DNA of 62,478 bases, filler included, from Rhabdomonas costata (lineage: Eukaryota), in the NCBI GenBank assembly GCA_019059605.1. It is 35 parts of 35 records of this genome, joined end to end, with 100 filler letters (N's around TTAATTAATTAA, not from the genome) between each part and the next. Parts side by side here need not be neighbours in the genome. Positions count along the whole stretch, not along the records: positions 32,194 to 33,881 come from JAHMHO010010644.1; 34 more parts are not named here. One strand, 5' to 3'. Below, one piece after another: positions 14,350 to 60,536 of this stretch. The stretch's first letter is position 1, and the number at the start of each line of letters is the position of its first letter. The notes under the pieces were generated by a model. That model made no database searches. It saw only the letters and a program-made list of their open reading frames with translations, and had not been told where the DNA came from. A program made the position numbers and the translations under genes.

Positions 14350-15996
<1,647 letters not shown>

Positions 15997-31909: not shown

Positions 31910-32255
31910 GGCGCTCTTGGGCTGAACTCCATCCGCCATCCCGAACCCAACGTCGGCCACTGCACAGCTGAATGTCCCCCGCAACTGCCGAGGGTGAGCG
32001 CCCCGGTGAGCGTCCTGTTGGCCGTCGTGGAATCTACTGTCACTAGCTCTGCGAAAGACGAAGGAGAGCACTTCGCCTCATTCACCCCAACCCNNNNNNN
32101 NNNNNNNNNNNNNNNNNNNNNNNNNNNNNNNNNNNNNTTAATTAATTAANNNNNNNNNNNNNNNNNNNNNNNNNNNNNNNNNNNNNNNNNNNNTGTTGTT
32201 TGTTCTTTACGGCGTGATGTATGAGATCAGCTTTTGCTCCTCCAACTTTGCGCAG

Positions 32256-32925
32256 TTTTCTGCCCCACGGGTGCCATTGTGGAAAAGGACCACATTCAGG
32301 ACGTCCTGAAGGCCCAGAAGGTCTTTTTTTGGCGAGGCTTTCTTGCTGCCGATTTTTCTTTCCTGTTCCCTAATCGAACGGTTTGTTTTTGGTTACAGGC
32401 TGAGAAGATTATGATTCTCCAGAGTGCCCCTGCAACCCGCGTCGCCATTGCCGAGCTGTTTGGGGCCCCCCCAGGCACCATCGCGACAGGGAAGCTGGTG
32501 GGCGCGGCCCATGCCGCGGGATTCTCGCACGTCTTCGACACGAACTTCGCCGCGGACTTGGTTTGCTTCTTTTCCCCACATTACCTTTTTTCTTTTCCCT
32601 TGCCCTTGCGAGGTGCCATGTTTTTTTCTGTCCTTTGTTCCCAGACCATCATGGAAGAGGGCACGGAGTTTCTGAAGCGCCTGAAGAATGGTGGGCCCTT
32701 CCCCATGTTTACGTCTTGGTATGGAACTTACTGTTGCTGTCTTGTATGTGGTTCCAGCCTTGAGGTATTTGGCCTCGCATTGTTCCGCCTTTTGTGTCAG
32801 CTGCCCGGCCTGGATTAACCTGGTTGAGAAGAGGTATCCCGAGTTCATTCCCAACCTCTCGACTTGCCGCTCGCCCCAGATGATGATGGGTTCCACCATC
32901 AAGTCGTACTGGGCGCAGAAGCTCG
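32256..32925 (+). CDS. hydA: [FeFe]-hydrogenase (group A), internal exons: end of the ferredoxin-like F-domain and first half of the H-domain
   Basis: Exons 32256-32320, 32399-32560, 32645-32718 and 32801-32925 with GT-AG introns of 78, 84 and 82 nt: FCPTGAIVEKDHIQDVLKAQKAEKIMILQSAPATRVAIAELFGAPPGTIATGKLVGAAHAAGFSHVFDTNFAADLTIMEEGTEFLKRLKNGGPFPMFTSCCPAWINLVEKRYPEFIPNLSTCRSPQMMMGSTIKSYWAQKL. The P1 motif TSCCPxW, ADLTIMEE and STCRSPQ are intact. Confidence 0.96.
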
Positions 32926-35802
32926 GTGAGTTCTTTGCACTAACGTGCCCTTTGTTTCAGCGGGGGGGGGGGGATTCATTTTTTTGCATTGGTCCGGTTC
33001 CGGGTTGTCTGAAAGCGCGCATGAAAACGCATCTGGCATTGTGCGTTATAAATTCCGAATATTTGGTGGGATTAGTTGAACGACGAACAGGGCATACCCC
33101 TACAAACGCGTTACCAAGGGTTCAGGTGAAAAGCAAATAAATTACACGCGGACACAAAGATCAACGAGAAGCTGCAAAGTAGAAGGGGATGAAGATGGGA
33201 TAGGAGTTGAAGAGGTAGGGAGGTGGAGATGTCGGCAAAGAACACTTTGGATGAGGGGGATATCAAAAAGTTGTGCACTCTCTCACACACTGTGGGAGAT
33301 GAGCTCGCACGCATTTGGGACGCCCACACCAACCTGTAATGGAACCAGGAGAGACGTGGGGAAGTCAGCCTGGTGGCACAAAAGAGCCTTCCCGACAACT
33401 CGCGGGGCGAAGTGTCTCTCCCACGGCGAATACCACCACTTGCCTTTCCAAGACCAATGAGACACCCAGAAGGGAGCGAGGGTCAGGGGGTCATTAGGCG
33501 CCCATTAGCAAGAAGGTTGACGACCTTGGTGACAGCAAGAAAACCTGAACAGCGGAAGGCCCGCACTGCAGGAGTTCCCGTTGGTGGGCGAAGACCGGAC
33601 GGTACGGCCGAGAATCCGGGGGTAAACGAGAGCGCAGCCTCCCCAACCTCGGAGGTGGTCAGGTCCAAGACGGGTTCTGCAGGTTGGGCTGGATGAAGCA
33701 TTTGGCATTCGGCCTGTGGGGCCGATTCGCTGAACGCTGCTGTCGCTGAGGATGCACTCAAAGAAATGCACTCGGGGAGAGGGAGCGGCAAGGGGCAGGA
33801 CCATGCATTCGGACCGTTGGGAGGCACGTGTGCAGGAGAGAGAGGAAGGGACATCGAGAGCAACAGCAACAACACAAACACNNNNNNNNNNNNNNNNNNN
33901 NNNNNNNNNNNNNNNNNNNNNNNNNTTAATTAATTAANNNNNNNNNNNNNNNNNNNNNNNNNNNNNNNNNNNNNNNNNNNNTTGTTTTCCTGGAGGTACT
34001 CATCTTGGGTTCCCCTTGGCTTCTTCAGTGCTGCCGTGTTCCGCTTGCGTGCCTTCCTTTTGTGGTGTGTACCTGCCCGTGTGGTTTTGAGGGGCGGTTG
34101 TCCAGGCCCCTCTTTGTGTGCTTCTAGCTCTGTTTGTTGTCATCGAATCCAATACTGTTGTGCAAAAGTGCTTTTTTTTGCCGTGTGCTGTGGTCTCCAT
34201 GCGGAGGGTTTGGCTAAATTTTGGGGAGGGGTGATTCAGCTTGCCATGTGTCTTGTATCAACTGATAGTTTAGAATGATTTTTTGTTATCATTGACTTGT
34301 CAGCGAAGACACGACACAACGTTTCGCCGTATATGCGTATATATCCCCCAACACCGGTATGCGGGGTGTGGAGTAGAGTAGAAGGAAAACGCGATTCCCT
34401 ATCCTGCGCTACTCCGTCCTGTACGGAAAGCGAATGCAAAGACAACAAAGGAGAGGAAGGCTGATCTTTGCTTAAATTCGCCGCCTTTTTCACGACTTCC
34501 GTTCAACCGGTGCATTTCTGCACACATATGCGCAGAGGCGGTTTTTCCAAATATTCCAAATATTTGTCAAGCGTCGGAGCCTTGTGTTTGAGCTCGACTG
34601 TCTGCGTGTGGAACTGGGTCTCTCATCTGGTGGGATAAATTGATGGCCTCCTCGAGTTCGTGCTCCCTGTACATTGAAGACTTCGCCGAAATCCCGGGGA
34701 CCCACGATGAACAGGGCCAATGCCGCACCTTGAGATGCCCATGGGGAAGCGTGGGGCTGCATCCCCGCCGTCCCCCAACGTCTGACGAAAGACCTCTGGG
34801 GCTAGCAGCGGTGATCCAGGTGGTGCCTCCTCACTCACGTTACATGTCCTCTGTTGTTGTACGTCCCTTTTTTTTTTTCTGTTTTTCCATATGCAGATAT
34901 GCAGGTGTGGAACAAAAGGAATCTGGGAAATTTGCAGCGCATCTCCTCTCTTTTCAATGTGCTGGACTTTCCCAGGGAGCTATAACATCTTGGAACCCTC
35001 CTCCCTCCCACCTTTTCTCCTTTTGCTCCTGGGAAGTGTTATGGGTTACCCGCACATTGCTGAGTATGGCGAACACATTTCATTGATTGTCTCATCTTAG
35101 GTGATTTTTCTTTGTGTGTGTGTGTGGGGGGGGAGGAACTCCTAAATTCTCCTTTTCCATCCATTGATTGTCTAGCTCTGCAGAGCCATCTTTCTTCACG
35201 CTGGGGTCTGTATATCCGAAGATCTGCATGATCTGTGGGCACCGGTACGGTTTTGCTTAAAAAAAGCAATGGTCCGTTTTGTGGCCGGTGTACCTCAAGT
35301 CCGTCTTGAAGTGTCATGGGTAATGGAAGGTGCTTGCGGTTGGTTTGGTAATGCAATGCCCTGCTCTGTCCCCATCTTGGGTGCCTGTTTCCTTGGCAGC
35401 GTCAAGACGAGGCGATCGCCATGCTTTCGGCCGAAGTGCAGCAACTACGCGAGGAGTTTGGTCAGGTGCGTCCCCTCCCCCGCTCTTTACTTTGGAAACA
35501 ACTTGTGAAGTTAGAGGGGATTATCGAGTATTGACGAAAAAGAGCTTTCCAGTGGCCTGTTTTCAAGCGCTCATTGGCCCGAACTGAAGATGTTCGTCGA
35601 AAGCTTTTCCTTTGCAGCGAGGCGTGGGATTGTGCTTTTCCTTTGTTACACAGGAAAAGCACAAACCCANNNNNNNNNNNNNNNNNNNNNNNNNNNNNNN
35701 NNNNNNNNNNNNNTTAATTAATTAANNNNNNNNNNNNNNNNNNNNNNNNNNNNNNNNNNNNNNNNNNNNGGGGTTTTTTTTGGGGGGGGGCAAGAAGCAC
35801 AC

Positions 35803-42929: not shown

Positions 42930-44371
42930 TTCTTCCGCAGGCCCTCCACCATCTTCGGCAGCTCGGAGGGCTGCAGGGGCTCCACCGCGATTTTCACCAC
43001 AGAGAGCGTGCTGAAGCTCAGCGGGCGGAAGATGCTGCACCCCTCCACGTTGACCCCAACCTGTGGGAGGACACACACAGAGAGAGAGCGCCACGTGTGC
43101 CACGTGCCAAGGCAGTGCTGCAGGGTGTAGTGTTGCCGGCTTTTCCGGAACAGCTTGATGAACAGCTGGATGTTCGCTTGGTGCCTTAGCACAGGGGAAG
43201 AAGAAGTTCAGCTGTTGTTGCCAAGAGGGGAAGACAGGGGAGGGGCGCAACTAAGACAGGGACACACCGCGGGCTAGTTTCATGCGTTTTCATCTACAAG
43301 CCACATATTTCCTTGATCACAGCAATGGCAAGGAGGGCAGGATGCAGGCTCCTGTACACTGCCTGAGCTGGGACTGCCAAGGAGGGGGGGGGGTGCAAGA
43401 AGGGTTAATCCTGAACAATGAAGGCAAAACTCACGGCAGCACAGCACGAAAAAAACACCGCAAAATACGCAAAAACAAACCAAACAGGCCGACTTGGGGA
43501 GGAACCGAAGAGGCAGGGAGCAATAGAACTAAAAAAGAGAAATATGAAAAAGAAGTCTACTGAGCTACCAAGAGTAATTATGGATGTGTGTATTTGGAAA
43601 GGCGGCTGGGACAGGCACCACGGTGGCGGTCTTCAGGATGGGCTGCTCAATGCCCTCGATCAGCACCCAGTTCCCAGCCACGGCCTGACGCAGCGGCAGC
43701 TTGTCGCGGCCCAGCGGAATGAACAGCCCGCTGACGTCCTTCACGCACATGTCCTCCTCGTCGTCTGTGGTGTAGGCCTCGCCCAGGACTTTCACCTTGG
43801 AGTCGCTGCGGATGGTGCCGCTCATCACGCGGCCCCACGCCAGGAAGGAGGAGGCGTCTGGGGTGTGGAACAGCTTCGTCACGTGGACCTGCGCGGCAAA
43901 GCCCACACTCTGCTTAGCCCCCCCCCCTACCACATCAATTAAACTTACAGTACCAGAGGGTATATAGGGAAAAAAAGCACCCAGAAAGGAAAAACCGCTC
44001 CAACTGAAACCAAAATATGTTCGCCTTTTTTTGAAATGTTTTTGAAAGATAGCACGCACGACAGGGAAGGGGCGCAACCAATGCAAACACCCCAGAAAAT
44101 CTTGCGAGGAAGCGTTCCGAGGGAGTTCTGACCTTGGCCAGTGAGGCTGGGTAGTGAGCATTCGTCCGATGTTTACGGTGTATTTCCCGCATTTTCAGAC
44201 GACAAGTGCTAACCGCGAAACGTTTGGCCCAATTTCGGCCATCCCCCACAAACAGAATTGGGCGGGGGGCGCCACAGCTCTCCCGCGAACCACAAGAGGG
44301 GTGTCCCTCTGGCACTCGATCATGTCCTCGACGATCCTGTCCTCCATGCTACCCGTGTACAGGTGTCTCAC
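42930..44371 (-). CDS. EFTUD2: U5 snRNP 116-kDa GTPase Snu114/EFTUD2, internal exons
   Basis: Exons 44371-44291, 43888-~43613 and 43060-contig end: VRHLYTG...PLV/VHVTKLF...[12 protein letters not shown]...[16 protein letters not shown]...[20 protein letters not shown]/...[46 protein letters not shown] and PSELPKM distinguish it from eEF2. Confidence 0.95.
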
Positions 44372-48040: not shown

Positions 48041-50333
48041 ACATCACCTGCCAAGCATTGATATGGCCCGTTTCATCTCAAAAGTGAGAGTTTCCCACAC
48101 AAACATCAAACTGTCAGAACTCCGAGGAAAGATGCACACCAAAATGAATAGTTTCCTTCAGTTGCCTTAAAGCGACCACCGTCAGNNNNNNNNNNNNNNN
48201 NNNNNNNNNNNNNNNNNNNNNNNNNNNNNTTAATTAATTAANNNNNNNNNNNNNNNNNNNNNNNNNNNNNNNNNNNNNNNNNNNNTGTGGGGGGGAGATG
48301 TTCTCCGAAATGAAATAAGAAATTTCTCGTGGAACTACTCTGATCTGTGCTCGGGGTAGGGCTCGCACCTGGGGGTCCGCACGCCCTTCCTGGCCGTCAT
48401 TGCGCCGTACGCTCAACGGGCACTGCAGCAGCGGTGGGTGGGGTGCCCACTGTCCCTCTCTCCGGACCCCGCTTCTTCCCCGGCGAGTGCCCTGGAAGGC
48501 ATGGCTCTCCCTTGAAGGCGACCAGAGCCCCCCAAATTCTCTCCGCCGAACTGACCTCTTGCCTCGCCTTCACCAAACCTTGTGGGTTTTTTTCTGGTGG
48601 CGCATCTCATCTTCCCTCCACTATCGCAGTTAAATCCAAACTCCATATTTTGTCAATTACGTCATTCCGATGATCTACTTTGCTCGAACAAGAGCATGAT
48701 TTGAACAAGAGTTAAGATTTTCCCCAACCTACCTAATGGGTTGCCTTCTTGATGTCTTCTGGTCTTGTATGGTATGGCTCTTCCGCCGCACTTGATATCC
48801 TGCTCAGTGGTGGTTTGAACTGATTTTAAGGATGTTCACAACCCGATCTTCAGTATATTTTTGGGCCCCAGGATCCAGTGATTGGAGGCGCTTTTCCAAG
48901 GTTTCCAAGGTTATTGGGCACTCAACTTCCGAAAGCTCTCATTATGAAATGGTCTCACCGCTGGTCCCACTTTCCACCTAACCTCAGCTCAAGCTCGCGA
49001 GCTCCTCTGCTCTCTGCTTGCTCGAGGCGAGCTTCACGGGGGGTGCCAGCTGTGCGTATACTGGGAGGACCGCAAGGTGGTGGATCTAGCGGTAGGCTGC
49101 CGCGGATCCGTTGACCCCCGGCCGCTGCGCCCGGAGTGTCTGCTTCCCGGGCTGCACCTCACCCAGGTCCTGCTGGCCACGGTGCTGCATGTTCTCGTGC
49201 AAAACGGGGAGATGGGCTATGACACCAGGTCTTGCCCCCACCCCCACCCCTCCGAAAAGAAAAAAAGAAGTCTGATTGTTGATCACAGTACTTTCGGTTG
49301 CTTGCTGAGGCCTGGGTTTCGGAAATTTAGAGTTTGCCTTGGCAGGTTCACTCGCTGCCTGTCACTGGCATCGTGTGAGGGGTTGGTCACTGCTCACCTC
49401 AGGACTGGCAAATGCTGTGTGTGTTTGTCTGTGCCGGGCAGGAAAGCGGGTCCAAGCACGGATTTGGAGAGGGATTGGGGTTGAGGGCCGAAGGGCAGCG
49501 TACAATTGGGGAAGGTTGGATTCCTATAAAGAGGTCTACAAATCCACCAGTCCACCAGTTGGGGTTCCCAATGCGCCGCGTTAACTGTGGATCGGGAGTC
49601 ACAAGGGTCAAGTCAACCTTGCCTGACAAGAGAGAGGGACATGGCATTGTGGACCGTCAAGGATGTGAGACCATATGGACCCATACTCCACCGAAAGCTG
49701 GAGAGCCCACGGGGGAAGTGTATTTCGAATCCTTCACAGAAAATATTCACTCTTGCTAAGCCTATGTGTGTTTGTGTTTGTTTATGTGCAGGTAACCGCC
49801 AGCATTCGCTTTCATCTACCGGAGCTGTAGGCGCAGTACATTAGACGCCCCCCCCTACACACAGTTACGACTGGACCTTGTCGCAGCGGAGCAGCCCAAG
49901 ATATCCAGGACAAGAAGTTGTAACGTTCTGTTGGAATTCTAGGGTAGAGATGCTTCACCCTTGTACCCCACCTNNNNNNNNNNNNNNNNNNNNNNNNNNN
50001 NNNNNNNNNNNNNNNNNTTAATTAATTAANNNNNNNNNNNNNNNNNNNNNNNNNNNNNNNNNNNNNNNNNNNNGTGGTGTGGTGAAAATAAAGGGGGCGG
50101 TTCGTGGCCAGGTGGAGGATGCCAATGGTTTGGCAATGGTGGTGGGCTCGAGTTATGCCTCTGCAACCTCTCTGGTTCGGTTCTTTCTGATCCTCAACGC
50201 GTGTCCTCAACGTGTCCTCAACGCACGGCGCTGTGTTTTTGGGCCTTCGTGAAGAGCCACATTTCTTTGCTGAAACAAAACCACCACACTCTGGGCTTGG
50301 GGCATCTCTCTGATTCGTGTACATCTTTGTCAG

Positions 50334-51473
50334 GAAATGAATGGTTTCGATTACCGCGGGCACAAACTCCTGGTGCAGTCCGCAATCAGCGCCGGGGTGA
50401 CCTCGGACTCTCGGGTGGTGCTATTCGTCGGAAACCTACCCGTGGCCACCACGGAGCAGCAGTTGTGGGAACTCTTCGACGGCTACACCTCGCTGTGCTA
50501 CAGCTGGATCCACGTCCCCACACTGGACGCCCTGGTGGAGTTCCGCAAGCCCACCGCCGCTAAGAAGGCCTTGCAGGAGCTTTCCTCTGCAGAGTTCTTG
50601 GGCTCCACTCTGGTGCTGGAGCTGACGTCGGAGACCGTGGAGCAGAGCGAGGTCGACGAGGAGGAGGGCGGGGATAGCTCTTCATCAGACGGGAAGGCAG
50701 CGGGCGCCAAGAAGAGGAAGCGTAGGAAATCTAAGCAGAGCGCTAAGGAGAAGGCCACGGCGAAGCGCAGTCGGAAGGCAGGCGGAGCCGCGGCGGCGGT
50801 GAAGCCCAGGGCCAAACTCACGAGGTCTGGGAAGGTTCGAAAGGCCGCGACGGCAGACTCGTCGTCATCGTCCTCCTCTTCCTCTTCTTCTGACAGTGAC
50901 TCCGCTGATAATGATGACGATGACGGGGACAGCAGTTCGGAGACCTCGTCGTCCTCTGAGTCCGATTCCACGTCCGACGCCCCGTCCTCCCACGGCCGGA
51001 GGAAAGCTGGGAAGCCTACCCCCAAGCCGCCGACCCAGAAGCCCAAGACAGCGAATAAGGCTGTCCCTCTGAAGAAGCCCCGGCTGAAGGAAGTGGCTGC
51101 GGGTGCTCCAGGGGCCCAGTCTTCCTCAAAGTCAAAGTCTAATGTTAAGGCCAAGGCTGGCGCTGGGGCAAAGCCAACCTCCCCTAAGATGGGCTCCGAC
51201 GGACCTCGTGGTGGGTCGACTAAGCCTGGCTCAAAGCCTGCGGACACGGGCAAGACCGCCCACAACCACCGGCCCAAAAGTGGGGGACACAGCGAGGATA
51301 AGGGGGGCTTGGTGAGGCCCTCCACCTCGGGCACGGAGAAGATGGCGAAGGAGGTGCGAAACCCTACCAAGAAGCCTGCCTCACCCAGCGCTGGTGGGGC
51401 TCGCGACGCCGTTGCGGATGGAGAAACGGGGGCAAAGAACAGGCAGGAAGACAACGCGGGGAAGGCGACCTGA
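50334..51473 (+). CDS. RRM RNA-binding protein with a long Lys/Ser/Asp low-complexity tail, last exon
   Basis: cag|EMNGFDYRGHKLLVQ (end of one RRM), then VLFVGNLPVATTEQQLWELF...ALVEFRKPTAAKKALQELSSAEFLGSTLVLE. NLS-like KKRKRRK and a poly-S/D tract follow; stop at 51473. Confidence 0.88.
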   Translation, partial: EMNGFDYRGHKLLVQSAISAGVTSDSRVVLFVGNLPVATTEQQLWELFDGYTSLCYSWIHVPTLDALVEFRKPTAAKKALQELSSAEFLGSTLVLELTSETVEQSEVDEEEGGDSSSSDGKAAGAKKRKRRKSKQSAKEKATAKRSRKAGGAAAAVKPRAKLTRSGKVRKAATADSSSSSSSSSSSDSDSADNDDDDGDSSSETSSSSESDSTSDAPSSHGRRKAGKPTPKPPTQKPKTANKAVPLKKPRLKEVAAGAPGAQSSSKSKSNVKAKAGAGAKPTSPKMGSDGPRGGSTKPGSKPADTGKTAHNHRPKSGGHSEDKGGLVRPSTSGTEKMAKEVRNPTKKPASPSAGGARDAVADGETGAKNRQEDNAGKAT

Positions 51474-53829: not shown

Positions 53830-55023
53830 GTACCCCACCTTCATCCAGGCACTGAATGACCTCGACGACGCTCTCTGTATGCTGTCGTTTGTGCATTTTT
53901 ACACTGTGCACTATTTGATTTTTTTGAATGGCGAACCCATCATTGGGGTGGCATCTCTGTCGCTTTATTCATCTTTGTCGGCACTTTGCATTTTTTAGCA
54001 CTCTTTTTTCACCCTGTGCCCCCCCCCCTTTTTTTTAGGTGTTTGTGTAGTAAAAGTTGCCCCTTCCTAATGGGGAAACGCTTGTCTCCCCTTGAGGTCG
54101 CCGAGGAAGTGCTCACGTGACTTTTTCCCTGACGGTTCTGCTTGTGACGCGACTGCCTGCCATGTTCTGCACATTTAGTTTTAGACCCACGGGCTCCGGG
54201 TTGACATTGCACACCGAGCGAGTGCAATGAATATCGGGCGAAACGCCGCTCAATATGGGTAGAAGGTGCTAGATGGCTGTCTTGTCTGGGGTCGGATTGG
54301 GCTCGTTGGCGTCAGACATGAGGCCCAGTTTCAGCTTGCCTGCAACAAAATTCGGCTTCTGTTGCTTTTTTTTTTGCAATATTTTGCCCTATTTTGCTTT
54401 GCATTTTGCCCCGGCCCCCTCTGCATCCGACAAACAAAGGGAAGCTGGTAACTAGGTACCAGACCCTACATAAGTCAATTCATCGAGTTGAAGGGAGCGT
54501 CAGGACAGCTGCACCAGCTGTCACACTCTATTCCCGCCTGCCCTCCACCGCCCGACACGTTGGAGCATACATGCAAACCTTCAGGTGTTTTTGGCCGCGT
54601 TTTTTTTTTCAGGCCACGTCTTCCTGTACGCCCAGCTGACGGCACTGTACCTGGACGAGGGGACAAATAACATTCAGGGGATCCCCGACCTGACTACGGG
54701 GCTGCAGCAGAAGGCTCAGCAGCTGGCCACGCGGTTCAACGAGTACGTGGTCAAAACGAAGTGCCTGCGGAAAAGCTTCGTCTCCATAAAAGACTACTAC
54801 TACGAGGCGGTGCGCTGTTTGGTTTTGTGGGCCCGTCCTCCCTTGTATGGCGTATTTAGTGTTGCGTTGCGATACCTCGCTTACACGAGCGATCCAGCGA
54901 GCATTTCGGTGTCGCGATTCGAAATTCGCCATCCTTTGTTTCTGAAAGTGGGGCTGATTTTTTTTACAGGATATCAAGGGAGTCTCCGTGGTTTGGCTTG
55001 TGCCCCACTTCTTCTCGATCGCG
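53830..55023 (+). CDS. PES1: Pescadillo/Nop7 N-terminal domain, internal exons
   Basis: Exons 53830-53876 (YPTFIQALNDLDDAL), 54613-54809 (HVFLYAQL...LRKSFVSIKDYYYEA) and 54970-55023 (DIKGVSVVWLVPHFF), matching RYPTFxDALxDLDDAL, LRKxFxSIKGxYY and WxxPxxF. Confidence 0.92.
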
Positions 55024-55787
55024 GTGTGCTGCTGTGGCCTTCTTTGGAGCTGGGGGCTTCGAGTGATAGGGCCTCACCGTGTCATCTCTTTCCGGACTTG
55101 GGTTGAGCTCCAAAATTGATATTCCTGCCGGTGCCACCCACCGAAATCCACCTAAATTCAGTTGTGTCATTTTGAAGCAGCTCGGTGAAATGCTGGTGTC
55201 TACCCACCAAAACGGGTCAGTCAAACGTGATGTCGCATTATCCGTTCCCCAAAGATGGCAAAGGCCCCTCTCTTAATTGGCAATTCCCCCATCTGTACCA
55301 CTGCCGGCACCACAACCCCCAACACACCAACACCNNNNNNNNNNNNNNNNNNNNNNNNNNNNNNNNNNNNNNNNNNNNTTAATTAATTAANNNNNNNNNN
55401 NNNNNNNNNNNNNNNNNNNNNNNNNNNNNNNNNNTCCGAGGGTTTTTTGGGGACGTCGGCACAGAGTTCACCCCATCCCGCCCACAGCGAGCCTGCAGTG
55501 ATGACCAGAGCAGAGGGAAAGGAAGGATCTGGCCCAGGCTATTAATTAACCACATCACAAGGCAAGTGGAAAAAGAGGTCGCCAAAAGGCGACCCTGACT
55601 TGGCGGCACAAAGAGGGGGATCGGAAAATAAATACACTCAAAAATGTTAGCGATGTAGCATTGCAAAATTTCTGACTTGTGTGTGTTTGCGCACTGACAA
55701 GACCTTGAGACATTTCAACTTCAACCAAGAGATATTGTTTCACGTTTCAATTCTCCTTTTGGTGCACTGCAGGGCTTTCTATTTGAA

Positions 55788-59420: not shown

Positions 59421-60536
59421 CTCCCGCTCCGGACGTCCCAGAGCTTGCTCGTGTGGTCAAAGGAGCCTGTGATGATCAGATCGCCCCCAGTGTTAAAGTT
59501 CAGAGAGACGATCTCCGCAGTGTGCCCCTTGGTTTGGACAAGACACAGTGGCCCCTCCCCCCACAATAAATGGGAACCATAAGGCCGTCCACCTTTACGT
59601 CTTTACATCTTTGATAGCGGAGTGGAGTGTGCCAAGTGGAAAAAACCGTTCAGTTCTCAGCCCATGACCGTAGGATACCCAGCAACGCAGGCGAACAGCG
59701 CAGAAACCTGACAAGAAAAAACAACAGGCGCACCAGAAGAGTATGAAGCTCCTGGCCGGTGTTGACATCCCACAGCTTGGCGGTGTTATCCATGCTTCCG
59801 GTGGCAATGGTAGTACTTTGGGGATTGAAGCACAGGCACACGATCTCCGTGAGATGTCCACGGAGGGTGTGCAGGCAGTCACCCGACTCGGCATCCCACA
59901 CCTTGCAGGTCTTGTCAAAGGAGCCCGTGATGATCCGATTCCTGAAGAGAGAGCAGCTCCTTTCTTTCCAAAGGTAATTCTGGCGTGATTTGTGATTTCC
60001 AAACTGCAGCTGTGAGCAACAGCACACCACATAGTGCAACAAGAACATACCCAAAGGGATTGTTGAAGGCAATAGCGTACACCACATTTTTGTGCCCTTC
60101 CAGAGAAAGCAGCTCGTCACCTGTACAAGCACACAGACAACTTCGCATGCAAAAGCACCAACCCATGCAACAGCTCCTGTGCAGAACACAAACAAACCGG
60201 TCATCGTATCCCAGACCTTGCAGGTCCGGTCATAGGACCCGGTGATGAATCTGCAGAGCACAGTCAACAACGTACGAGTCCCAGCAACAACAGGGGGACC
60301 AAGAACTATAACTAAAACACAAGTGCACATACTTGTCACCCGACTTGTTGAAGGCACAATTGGTGAGAGGAAGAATGTGCGCCCGAAGCATCTTGAACAG
60401 GTAGAACAACTGTTTCCTGTCGCAAGACATCCGCTCAACAAGCTTCTCCAAAAGCTTCCGCACTTGCGGCTTCCGAGCTTCAGAGATCAAGGGCTCGCTG
60501 CTGACAATTTCATTAGTCGCAGCGTCCAGGTCGGTG
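59421..60536 (-). CDS. DAW1: Dynein assembly factor with WD repeats DAW1/ODA16/WDR69, 5 internal exons
   Basis: [12 protein letters not shown]...[70 protein letters not shown]...[63 protein letters not shown]. Confidence 0.97.

Follow-up and report, generated by a model that had tools for sequence, protein, structure and literature searches.

In a 62,478-nucleotide stretch of DNA from the genome assembly of Rhabdomonas costata (GCA_019059605.1), hereafter referred to as the window, a single contig (JAHMHO010010644.1; positions 32194-33881, + strand) was found to hold four exons of an [FeFe]-hydrogenase gene. The explanation that, taken as a whole, accounts best for the data, and that we consider probable, is that this contig represents a fragment of an R. 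costata nuclear gene for a group A [FeFe]-hydrogenase of 1175 residues, of which it specifies residues 209-351. The corresponding protein, P0001 (RCo029411 in EukProt), is of the type in which the hydrogenase is fused to a CysJ-like NADPH reductase. The RCo identifiers are reported to be those of R. costata transcripts (PMC8219788), so that the source is indeed a flagellate and a euglenid, as an earlier note on the same DNA had surmised.

The coding part of the contig displays a clear exon-intron structure, all on the + strand. The contig starts within an upstream intron, of which only the 3' end is present (32194-32255), ending in TTTGCGCAG with the acceptor AG at 32254-32255. Exon A (32256-32320) opens with the second and third bases of the V209 codon and continues with FCPTGAIVEKDHIQDVLKAQK, which constitutes the end of the second 4Fe-4S motif and a linker. 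Intron 1 (32321-32398; 78 nt, GTCTTT..TTACAG, phase 0, 47% T), which is not in the transcript-derived P0001, separates it from exon B (32399-32560), whose 54 codons run from AEKIMILQSAPATRVA to DTNFAADL, form the start of the H-domain and cover positions 1-53 of the Pfam profile PF02906. Intron 2 (32561-32644; 84 nt, GTTTGC..TCCCAG, phase 0, 49% T) splits the sequence ADL/TIMEE and is followed by exon C (32645-32718), which encodes TIMEEGTEFLKRLKNGGPFPMFTS and ends with the TG of the first cysteine of the P1 motif. Intron 3 (32719-32800; 82 nt, GTATGG..TGTCAG, phase 2) interrupts this Cys codon (TG/C). Exon D (32801-32925) then completes the P1 motif TSCCPAW, continues with INLVEKRYPEFIPNLSTCRSPQMMMGSTIKSYWAQKL and the first base of the A351 codon, and covers PF02906 positions 72-116. 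The remaining stretch (32926-33881) begins with the donor GTGAGT and extends over at least 956 nt to the end of the contig. The three complete introns are T-rich (40-49% T) and the exons have a GC content of 59.4%, which rises to 80% at third codon positions. The four exons and three GT-AG introns proposed in the earlier note at 32256-32925 were recovered with exactly the same coordinates, and so was its claim that P1 exists only once intron 3 has been spliced out.

A direct link between this gene structure and a transcript was provided by the protein comparison. The spliced 141-residue peptide is identical at every position (141/141) to residues 210-350 of P0001, which was the best match in a protein search among sequences of 346-2000 residues, and exons B and D are each 100% identical to it. 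The split codons at both flanks agree with P0001 as well: the codon of V209 is interrupted at the upstream acceptor (G/TT) and that of A351 at the downstream donor (G/CN). Considering the complete identity, P0001 is very likely the product of this same gene. The published assembly (N50 1194, GC 51.63%, 36,105 contigs of at least 1 kb) is described as too fragmented for gene prediction, and the R. costata proteins were predicted from Trinity transcripts (PMC8219788). Since this is how P0001 was obtained, all three junctions are supported at the RNA level.

A tblastn comparison of P0001 with the whole window yielded 13 high-scoring segment pairs, two of which were significant and both of which lie at 32234-32924; the other 11 had E-values of at least 0.33. 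The exons for the motifs P2 and P3, which the earlier note had proposed to look for, were not detected in the window by this search; both motifs are intact in P0001, as described below. Only one contig of the window matches P0001, and therefore the remainder of the gene must reside elsewhere in the assembly. The unspliced open reading frames (ORFs) of the contig already match PF02906 at E-values of 4.4e-16 and 7.5e-16 (59.7 and 58.9 bits, with a cut-off of 22.1) and 43 distinct PDB sequences, all of which are [FeFe]-hydrogenases (best 8a6t_A, E 2.2e-16). The hydrogenase match is thus far beyond chance.

A side observation concerns the start of exon A. The last seven nucleotides of the upstream intron, TGCGCAG at 32249-32255, read Cys-Ala-(Val) in frame and thereby correspond to residues 207-209 of P0001. 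The exact boundary of exon A is therefore ambiguous as long as the upstream exon is not at hand. The coincidence could be due to chance or reflect a short direct repeat at the exon/intron ends.

The domain structure of P0001 relates the protein to two families. From the N-terminus it comprises a 2Fe-2S domain, two 4Fe-4S motifs, the H-domain, a small-subunit-like tail and a flavodoxin (FMN)/FAD/NAD(P)H reductase. Pfam recognizes Fe_hyd_lg_C (8.7e-92), Fe_hyd_SSU (6.2e-20), Fer2_4 and Fer4, followed in the C-terminal part by Flavodoxin_1 (1.4e-30), FAD_binding_1 (8.6e-39) and NAD_binding_1 (7.7e-06). The PF02906 profile is matched over its full length (positions 1-245 of 245, 307.6 bits), and the reductase module, which lies outside the window, is delimited by PF00258 (606-745), PF00667 (790-994) and PF00175 (1027-1131). 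The sequence CPTGAI, which the earlier note had rightly attributed to an upstream ferredoxin-like cluster, falls within the second 4Fe-4S motif (PF00037 Fer4, residues 199-216). All H-cluster motifs are intact: P1 TSCCPAW at residue 307, P2 MPCVAKKDE at 363 and P3 EMMACPSGCIGGGGQ at 506. Moreover, P0001 passes TIGR02512, the curated NCBI model for group A, with 501.3 bits versus a cut-off of 405.95, whereas the two fragments encoded in the window reach 96.2 and 63.7 bits by themselves and remain under the cut-off, as expected for pieces. With the A6 model (668 versus 765) and the clostridial model (517 versus 900), the protein does not reach the curated cut-offs. On the basis of these motifs and models we classify P0001 as a group A, catalytic-type [FeFe]-hydrogenase of the CysJ-fused type, and the claim of a bona fide catalytic enzyme made in the earlier note is borne out.

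Comparison with proteins of known structure separates the two halves of P0001 neatly. HydA1 (PDB 8a6t_A) aligns with residues 24-583 (E 3.8e-146), and NADPH-cytochrome P450 reductases in the PDB align with residues 587-1173 at E-values of about 1e-58. TIGR01931 (cysJ) matches at 3.3e-69, under its equivalog cut-off. The fusion partner, C-terminal to the hydrogenase, is accordingly assigned by similarity to the CysJ/cytochrome P450 reductase type of NADPH reductases. The bacterial group A enzymes (CpI of Clostridium pasteurianum and HydA1; PDB 8a6t, 7q4v, 4xdc) likewise align with residues 24-583 (E 7e-117 for 4xdc_A), from the 2Fe-2S domain through both 4Fe-4S motifs and the H-domain to the small-subunit-like tail. 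Unlike P0001, these enzymes have no C-terminal flavoprotein module. In addition, they keep a His/Cys-ligated extra 4Fe-4S cluster (PF10588), whereas the corresponding region of P0001 (residues 100-135) has no cysteines and is not matched by PF10588. The euglenid PNO offers another comparison: its catalytic N-terminal part is a PFO and not a hydrogenase, and its electrons flow towards NADP+.

A search for relatives with the hydrogenase half as query returned 5154 proteins at E-values of at most 1e-30 among 8000 candidates, the best 120 of which were listed. The closest ones after P0001 among the matches listed were P0002 (65% identity), P0003 (60%) and the Fe-hydrogenase 2 of Stygiella incarcerata (55%), all over the hydrogenase half; further matches listed derive from Paratrimastix, Pelomyxa, Carpediemonas, Anaeramoeba, parabasalids, diatoms and others. 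No entry named Euglena was present among the best 120 of the 5154 matches. We constructed a quick IQ-TREE phylogeny of 66 rows picked by hand from 232 fetched proteins, comprising most of the named eukaryotes, a sample of the named bacteria and some further rows. The 166 rows left out are mostly unnamed or bacterial, and also include the PFO-fused protein P0143 of Blastocystis and the second protein of Anaeramoeba ignava (P0183). In this tree, which is unrooted and carries support values from the Shimodaira-Hasegawa-like approximate likelihood ratio test (SH-aLRT) and no bootstraps, P0001, P0002 and P0003 form a clade with a support of 100. The trio belongs to a 17-row clade (SH-aLRT 98) that further contains Stygiella, Pelomyxa, Nitzschia, Amphora and unnamed sequences. 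The named members of that clade are all eukaryotes, with no named bacterium among them, and most of these named members carry the same fusion. A tree had been proposed in the earlier note; the one built here, from rows that contained no Nar1/NARF sequence, places P0001 with eukaryotic hydrogenases.

Within the clade, the protein of Stygiella (P0009) is a close known counterpart of P0001; the tree did not resolve the two as specific sisters. The Stygiella protein has the same domain order from end to end (47% identity over 1159 columns), and the full-length alignment implies that the fusion itself is common to both. P0009 and P0002, like P0001, lack PF10588 in the precomputed Pfam lists. Stygiella is a member of Discoba. 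It is described as an anaerobe with hydrogenosomes that also possesses unfused hydrogenases targeted to its mitochondrion-related organelle (PMC4989108), whereas R. costata is reported to have a respiring, facultatively anaerobic mitochondrion (PMC8219788). In contrast to the several hydrogenases of Stygiella, no second one from R. costata appeared among the matches listed.

P0002 and P0003 carry the same fusion as P0001, and the similarity of P0002 (65% identity) extends over 1161 columns. The contig that encodes P0002 (L001) has a GC content at third codon positions of 46.5% versus the 80% of the exons in the window, and therefore originates from a different organism than the window gene. 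Upstream of the match, L001 contains 284 nt (1-284) with loosely repetitive, GTAG/CGGT-rich units and with CTTTTTTCG located 20 nt before the ATG. As a candidate spliced leader, and with that as a sign of euglenid origin, CTTTTTTCG was rejected: it is preceded by a further 266 nt, 165 of 200 shuffled sequences match equally, and it cannot be aligned to the R. costata leader beyond a run of T. In P0003, residues 1-45 form an arginine-rich and acid-poor extension (MRRTLKGS...) that, judged by eye, resembles a mitochondrial presequence.

From the domain structure and the comparison with similar fused enzymes we infer the electron donor, the direction of the reaction, the cellular location and the activity in vivo. 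NADPH would reduce FAD and then FMN in the fused reductase module, the electrons would pass via the accessory Fe-S clusters to the H-cluster, and there protons would be reduced to H2. CysJ-fused hydrogenases have been described in Trichomonas, Pygsuia, Stygiella, Pelomyxa, Trimastix and Paratrimastix, and the fused forms of these protists are predicted to be cytosolic (PMC4989108, PMC10703272). By analogy with these, the R. costata enzyme is probably cytosolic too. For the oxidation of pyruvate, R. costata is reported to have PNO alone, an enzyme that reduces NADP+; the organism is described as lacking PDH and alternative oxidase and as having rhodoquinone and the enzymes of wax-ester synthesis (PMC8219788). 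A role in NADPH-dependent H2 formation downstream of PNO is likely, whereas the statement of the earlier note that the organism can make H2 under anoxia stays a prediction. The fused hydrogenase could then act under low oxygen as a ferredoxin-independent vent for NADPH, running beside rhodoquinone-dependent fumarate reduction and wax-ester synthesis, with H2 being kept low by accompanying bacteria when oxygen is scarce.

Several points weigh against this explanation, some of them concerning the gene and others the proposed role. To begin with, the window covers only 142 of the 1175 codons, and P2, P3 and the reductase module are known from P0001; less probably, P0001 could stem from a close paralogue. 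Secondly, exon D is followed by 956 nt without an exon, as compared to 78-84 nt for the complete introns, and the contig may be chimeric towards its 3' end. In fact, this stretch (32926-33881) showed no match to P0001 by tblastn, no repeat elsewhere in the window and no Pfam match on any of the five ORFs that lie in it. A long intron could account for it, or else a chimeric junction produced by the assembly or by whole-genome amplification. Thirdly, NADPH-driven H2 formation is uphill under standard conditions, considering the redox potentials involved. In addition, diatoms, which are aerobic phototrophs, are found in the same 17-row clade as P0001, and the presence of close relatives in diatoms implies that the gene by itself is no proof of an H2-producing life style. 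Finally, the N-terminus of P0001 is 18 residues longer than that of the Stygiella protein, the extension being rich in Ala, Ser and Val. As an observation of its own, a sixth ORF, antisense to the exons, matched DUF7872 at an E-value of 0.0033, which is under the cut-off of that family.

The alternative that survives best accepts a euglenid gene and holds that the protein makes no H2 in vivo. It would instead serve NADPH-linked electron transfer between Fe-S and flavin centres, take up H2, or persist as a relic that is little used; in a cell that lacks the dedicated maturases, its 2Fe subcluster would be missing. We regard this as unlikely, yet worth serious consideration. The close relatives in the diatoms Nitzschia and Amphora fit such a role. 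Moreover, Thalassiosira is reported to have HydA and barely detectable H2, and a survey cited in the same study found no HYDEF or HYDG there (PMC10407231). The formation of H2 from NAD(P)H by fused enzymes is itself put forward as a hypothesis (PMC10703272), and in the excerpts of the literature on such hydrogenases available to us no enzyme assay of a fused form was found. On the other hand, all H-cluster motifs of P0001 are intact. Those encoded in the window are P1 and the stretch TIMEE/GTE/LKR, the latter falling on the proton-path region when aligned with the bacterial enzymes. The strong conservation (65% identity to P0002 over the 1161 aligned columns) and the existence of a transcript, from which P0001 was predicted, point in the same direction and argue for a working hydrogenase.

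A second alternative, implicit in the earlier note, is a stand-alone, classical HydA that depends on ferredoxin and is fed by PFO, as in hydrogenosomes. P0001 does have N-terminal 2Fe-2S and 4Fe-4S domains as in the clostridial enzymes, and in clostridial hydrogenases such domains accept electrons from ferredoxin. However, P0001 carries its own FMN/FAD/NADPH module, and on this point the note has to be corrected: given the fused CysJ-like reductase, the enzyme should draw its electrons from NADPH and not from the combination of PFO and ferredoxin. Furthermore, PNO is the sole pyruvate-oxidising enzyme reported for R. costata, and ferredoxin is not mentioned in the main text of that paper (PMC8219788). 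No short, unfused RCo hydrogenase was present in two lists of the 120 best matches (lengths 346-2000 and 646-2057), a search that covered proteins from 346 residues upward. We therefore consider a ferredoxin-dependent enzyme quite improbable, and an NADPH-dependent fused hydrogenase the better description of P0001.

It could also be argued that both the contig and the transcript derive from another eukaryote in the culture rather than from R. costata. The culture contained an uncharacterised mixture of bacteria and its DNA was subjected to whole-genome amplification, according to the genome paper (PMC8219788), and Euglena gracilis is reported to be without HydA (PMC10407231). Nevertheless, the genome paper describes a monoeukaryotic culture and regards its lineage as presumably clonal (PMC8219788), and the same sequence was recovered from separate DNA and RNA preparations. 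The hydrogenase contig is no outlier in composition, ranking 14th of the 35 window contigs by trinucleotide distance and being typical of the window in this respect, and the exon GC content agrees with the 58.25% published for the transcriptome (PMC8219788). The introns of the hydrogenase gene are GT/AG, and the same holds for all 29 complete introns in the six R. costata genes that were mapped manually (PMC8219788). A foreign eukaryotic origin thus appears very improbable, and R. costata remains the most plausible source. A bacterial contaminant is rejected on the GT..AG introns and the position in the tree; the earlier note had already dismissed it on the spliceosomal-type introns.

A last alternative, that of a Nar1/NARF-type protein of cytosolic Fe-S assembly, is hardly conceivable. 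To our knowledge such a protein is to be expected in every eukaryote, and Nar1/NARF proteins have degenerate H-cluster motifs and no catalytic signature. A NAR-type protein is the only hydrogenase-like sequence reported for E. gracilis (PMC10407231), but P0001 has intact P1, P2 and P3 motifs and a small-subunit-like domain, scores above the TIGR02512 cut-off and finds its best listed matches among catalytic hydrogenases (45-65% identity); the rejection is based on the motifs and on TIGR02512, with a tree that contained no NARF sequence.

The remainder of the window should be considered contig by contig. Rather than one locus, the window comprises 35 length-sorted contigs of a highly fragmented assembly, each 1684-1690 bp long, with the same 100-base spacer (44 N, TTAATTAATTAA, 44 N) placed between them 34 times. 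The contigs being unrelated, no gene neighbourhood or synteny can be read across the spacers. Their GC contents range from 43 to 58.5%, and with their size of about 1.7 kb they agree with the figures published for the R. costata assembly (PMC8219788). Pfam matches were obtained for four of the 20 longest stop-to-stop ORFs of the other contigs, all to ordinary eukaryotic domains: RRM_1 (50274-51470, +), WD40 (59653-60486, -), GTP_EFTU_D2 (43568-44194, -) and Pescadillo_N (54492-55103, +). For the RRM ORF (399 residues, 50274-51470) no homologue was found at an E-value of at most 1e-5 among proteins of 219-699 residues, and hence no RCo counterpart that would tie this further contig to R. costata. 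The window contains no Rfam match at gathering thresholds and no tRNA gene according to ARAGORN. Most deviant in composition is the contig at 16099-17788 (GC 42.9%, rank 35 of 35 by trinucleotide distance), which is possibly organellar, repeat-rich or foreign.

On a second contig, 14 nt (15225-15238) reproduce without a mismatch the last nucleotides of the spliced leader published for R. costata (PMC8219788), a match that none of 100 shuffled sequences attained and that agrees with R. costata as the source. The 14 nt form the last part of a somewhat longer stretch (15212-15238, +) in which 21 of 27 positions match the leader without gaps. The stretch is followed by ACCTAC and not by GT, and therefore no obvious gene for a spliced leader RNA is present at this position. 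It could be a variant of the leader, a degenerate copy of the spliced leader RNA gene or the 5' end of a retro-copied mRNA.

With respect to what was known before, the enzyme type itself has been described and the RCo029411 protein was already public in EukProt; what is new is its recognition as a hydrogenase and the structure of its gene. The euglenids appear to be a new host lineage for the CysJ-fused hydrogenase. The main text of the R. costata paper contains no occurrence of hydrogenase, HydA, FeFe or ferredoxin, although its supplementary tables, e.g. S8, could list the protein, and CysJ is stated, in the context of sulphate reduction, to be absent from the data set (PMC8219788). In E. 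gracilis, a study of 2023 found no HydA, a NAR-type protein being the sole sequence of this kind, and H2 that could barely be detected (PMC10407231). No paper that names both R. costata and hydrogenase turned up in the literature searched. In excerpts from the literature that connects euglenids, Euglenozoa or Symbiontida with hydrogenase, no report of a euglenid HydA was found. The earlier note's description of the pathway as little described in euglenids therefore seems fair, in view of the silence of the R. costata main text and of the NAR-type protein being the only one in E. gracilis.

A wider evolutionary scenario can be sketched, to which we attach less than even confidence and which is offered tentatively. 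Some heterotrophic euglenids may have kept a working NADPH-driven hydrogenase that, together with PNO, would constitute a ferredoxin-free route of two enzymes from pyruvate to H2, and that would have been lost in the photosynthetic Euglena lineage. The fused form is common to P0001 and the jakobid Stygiella, for which reason its origin may even go back to the early discobids.

Euglenid anaerobiosis is taught as a combination of PNO, rhodoquinone and wax esters. The presence of an intron-bearing, transcribed and motif-complete hydrogenase in a primary osmotroph shows that the euglenid toolkit is wider than that of E. gracilis would lead one to expect, and P0001 constitutes a concrete candidate for a link from NADPH to H2 that is connected to PNO. 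At the same time, a facultative anaerobe with a respiring mitochondrion joins the short list of organisms that host CysJ-fused hydrogenases. If the scenario sketched above proves true, the NADPH-driven hydrogenase would represent a third anaerobic electron sink in euglenids, beside fumarate reduction and the synthesis of wax esters.

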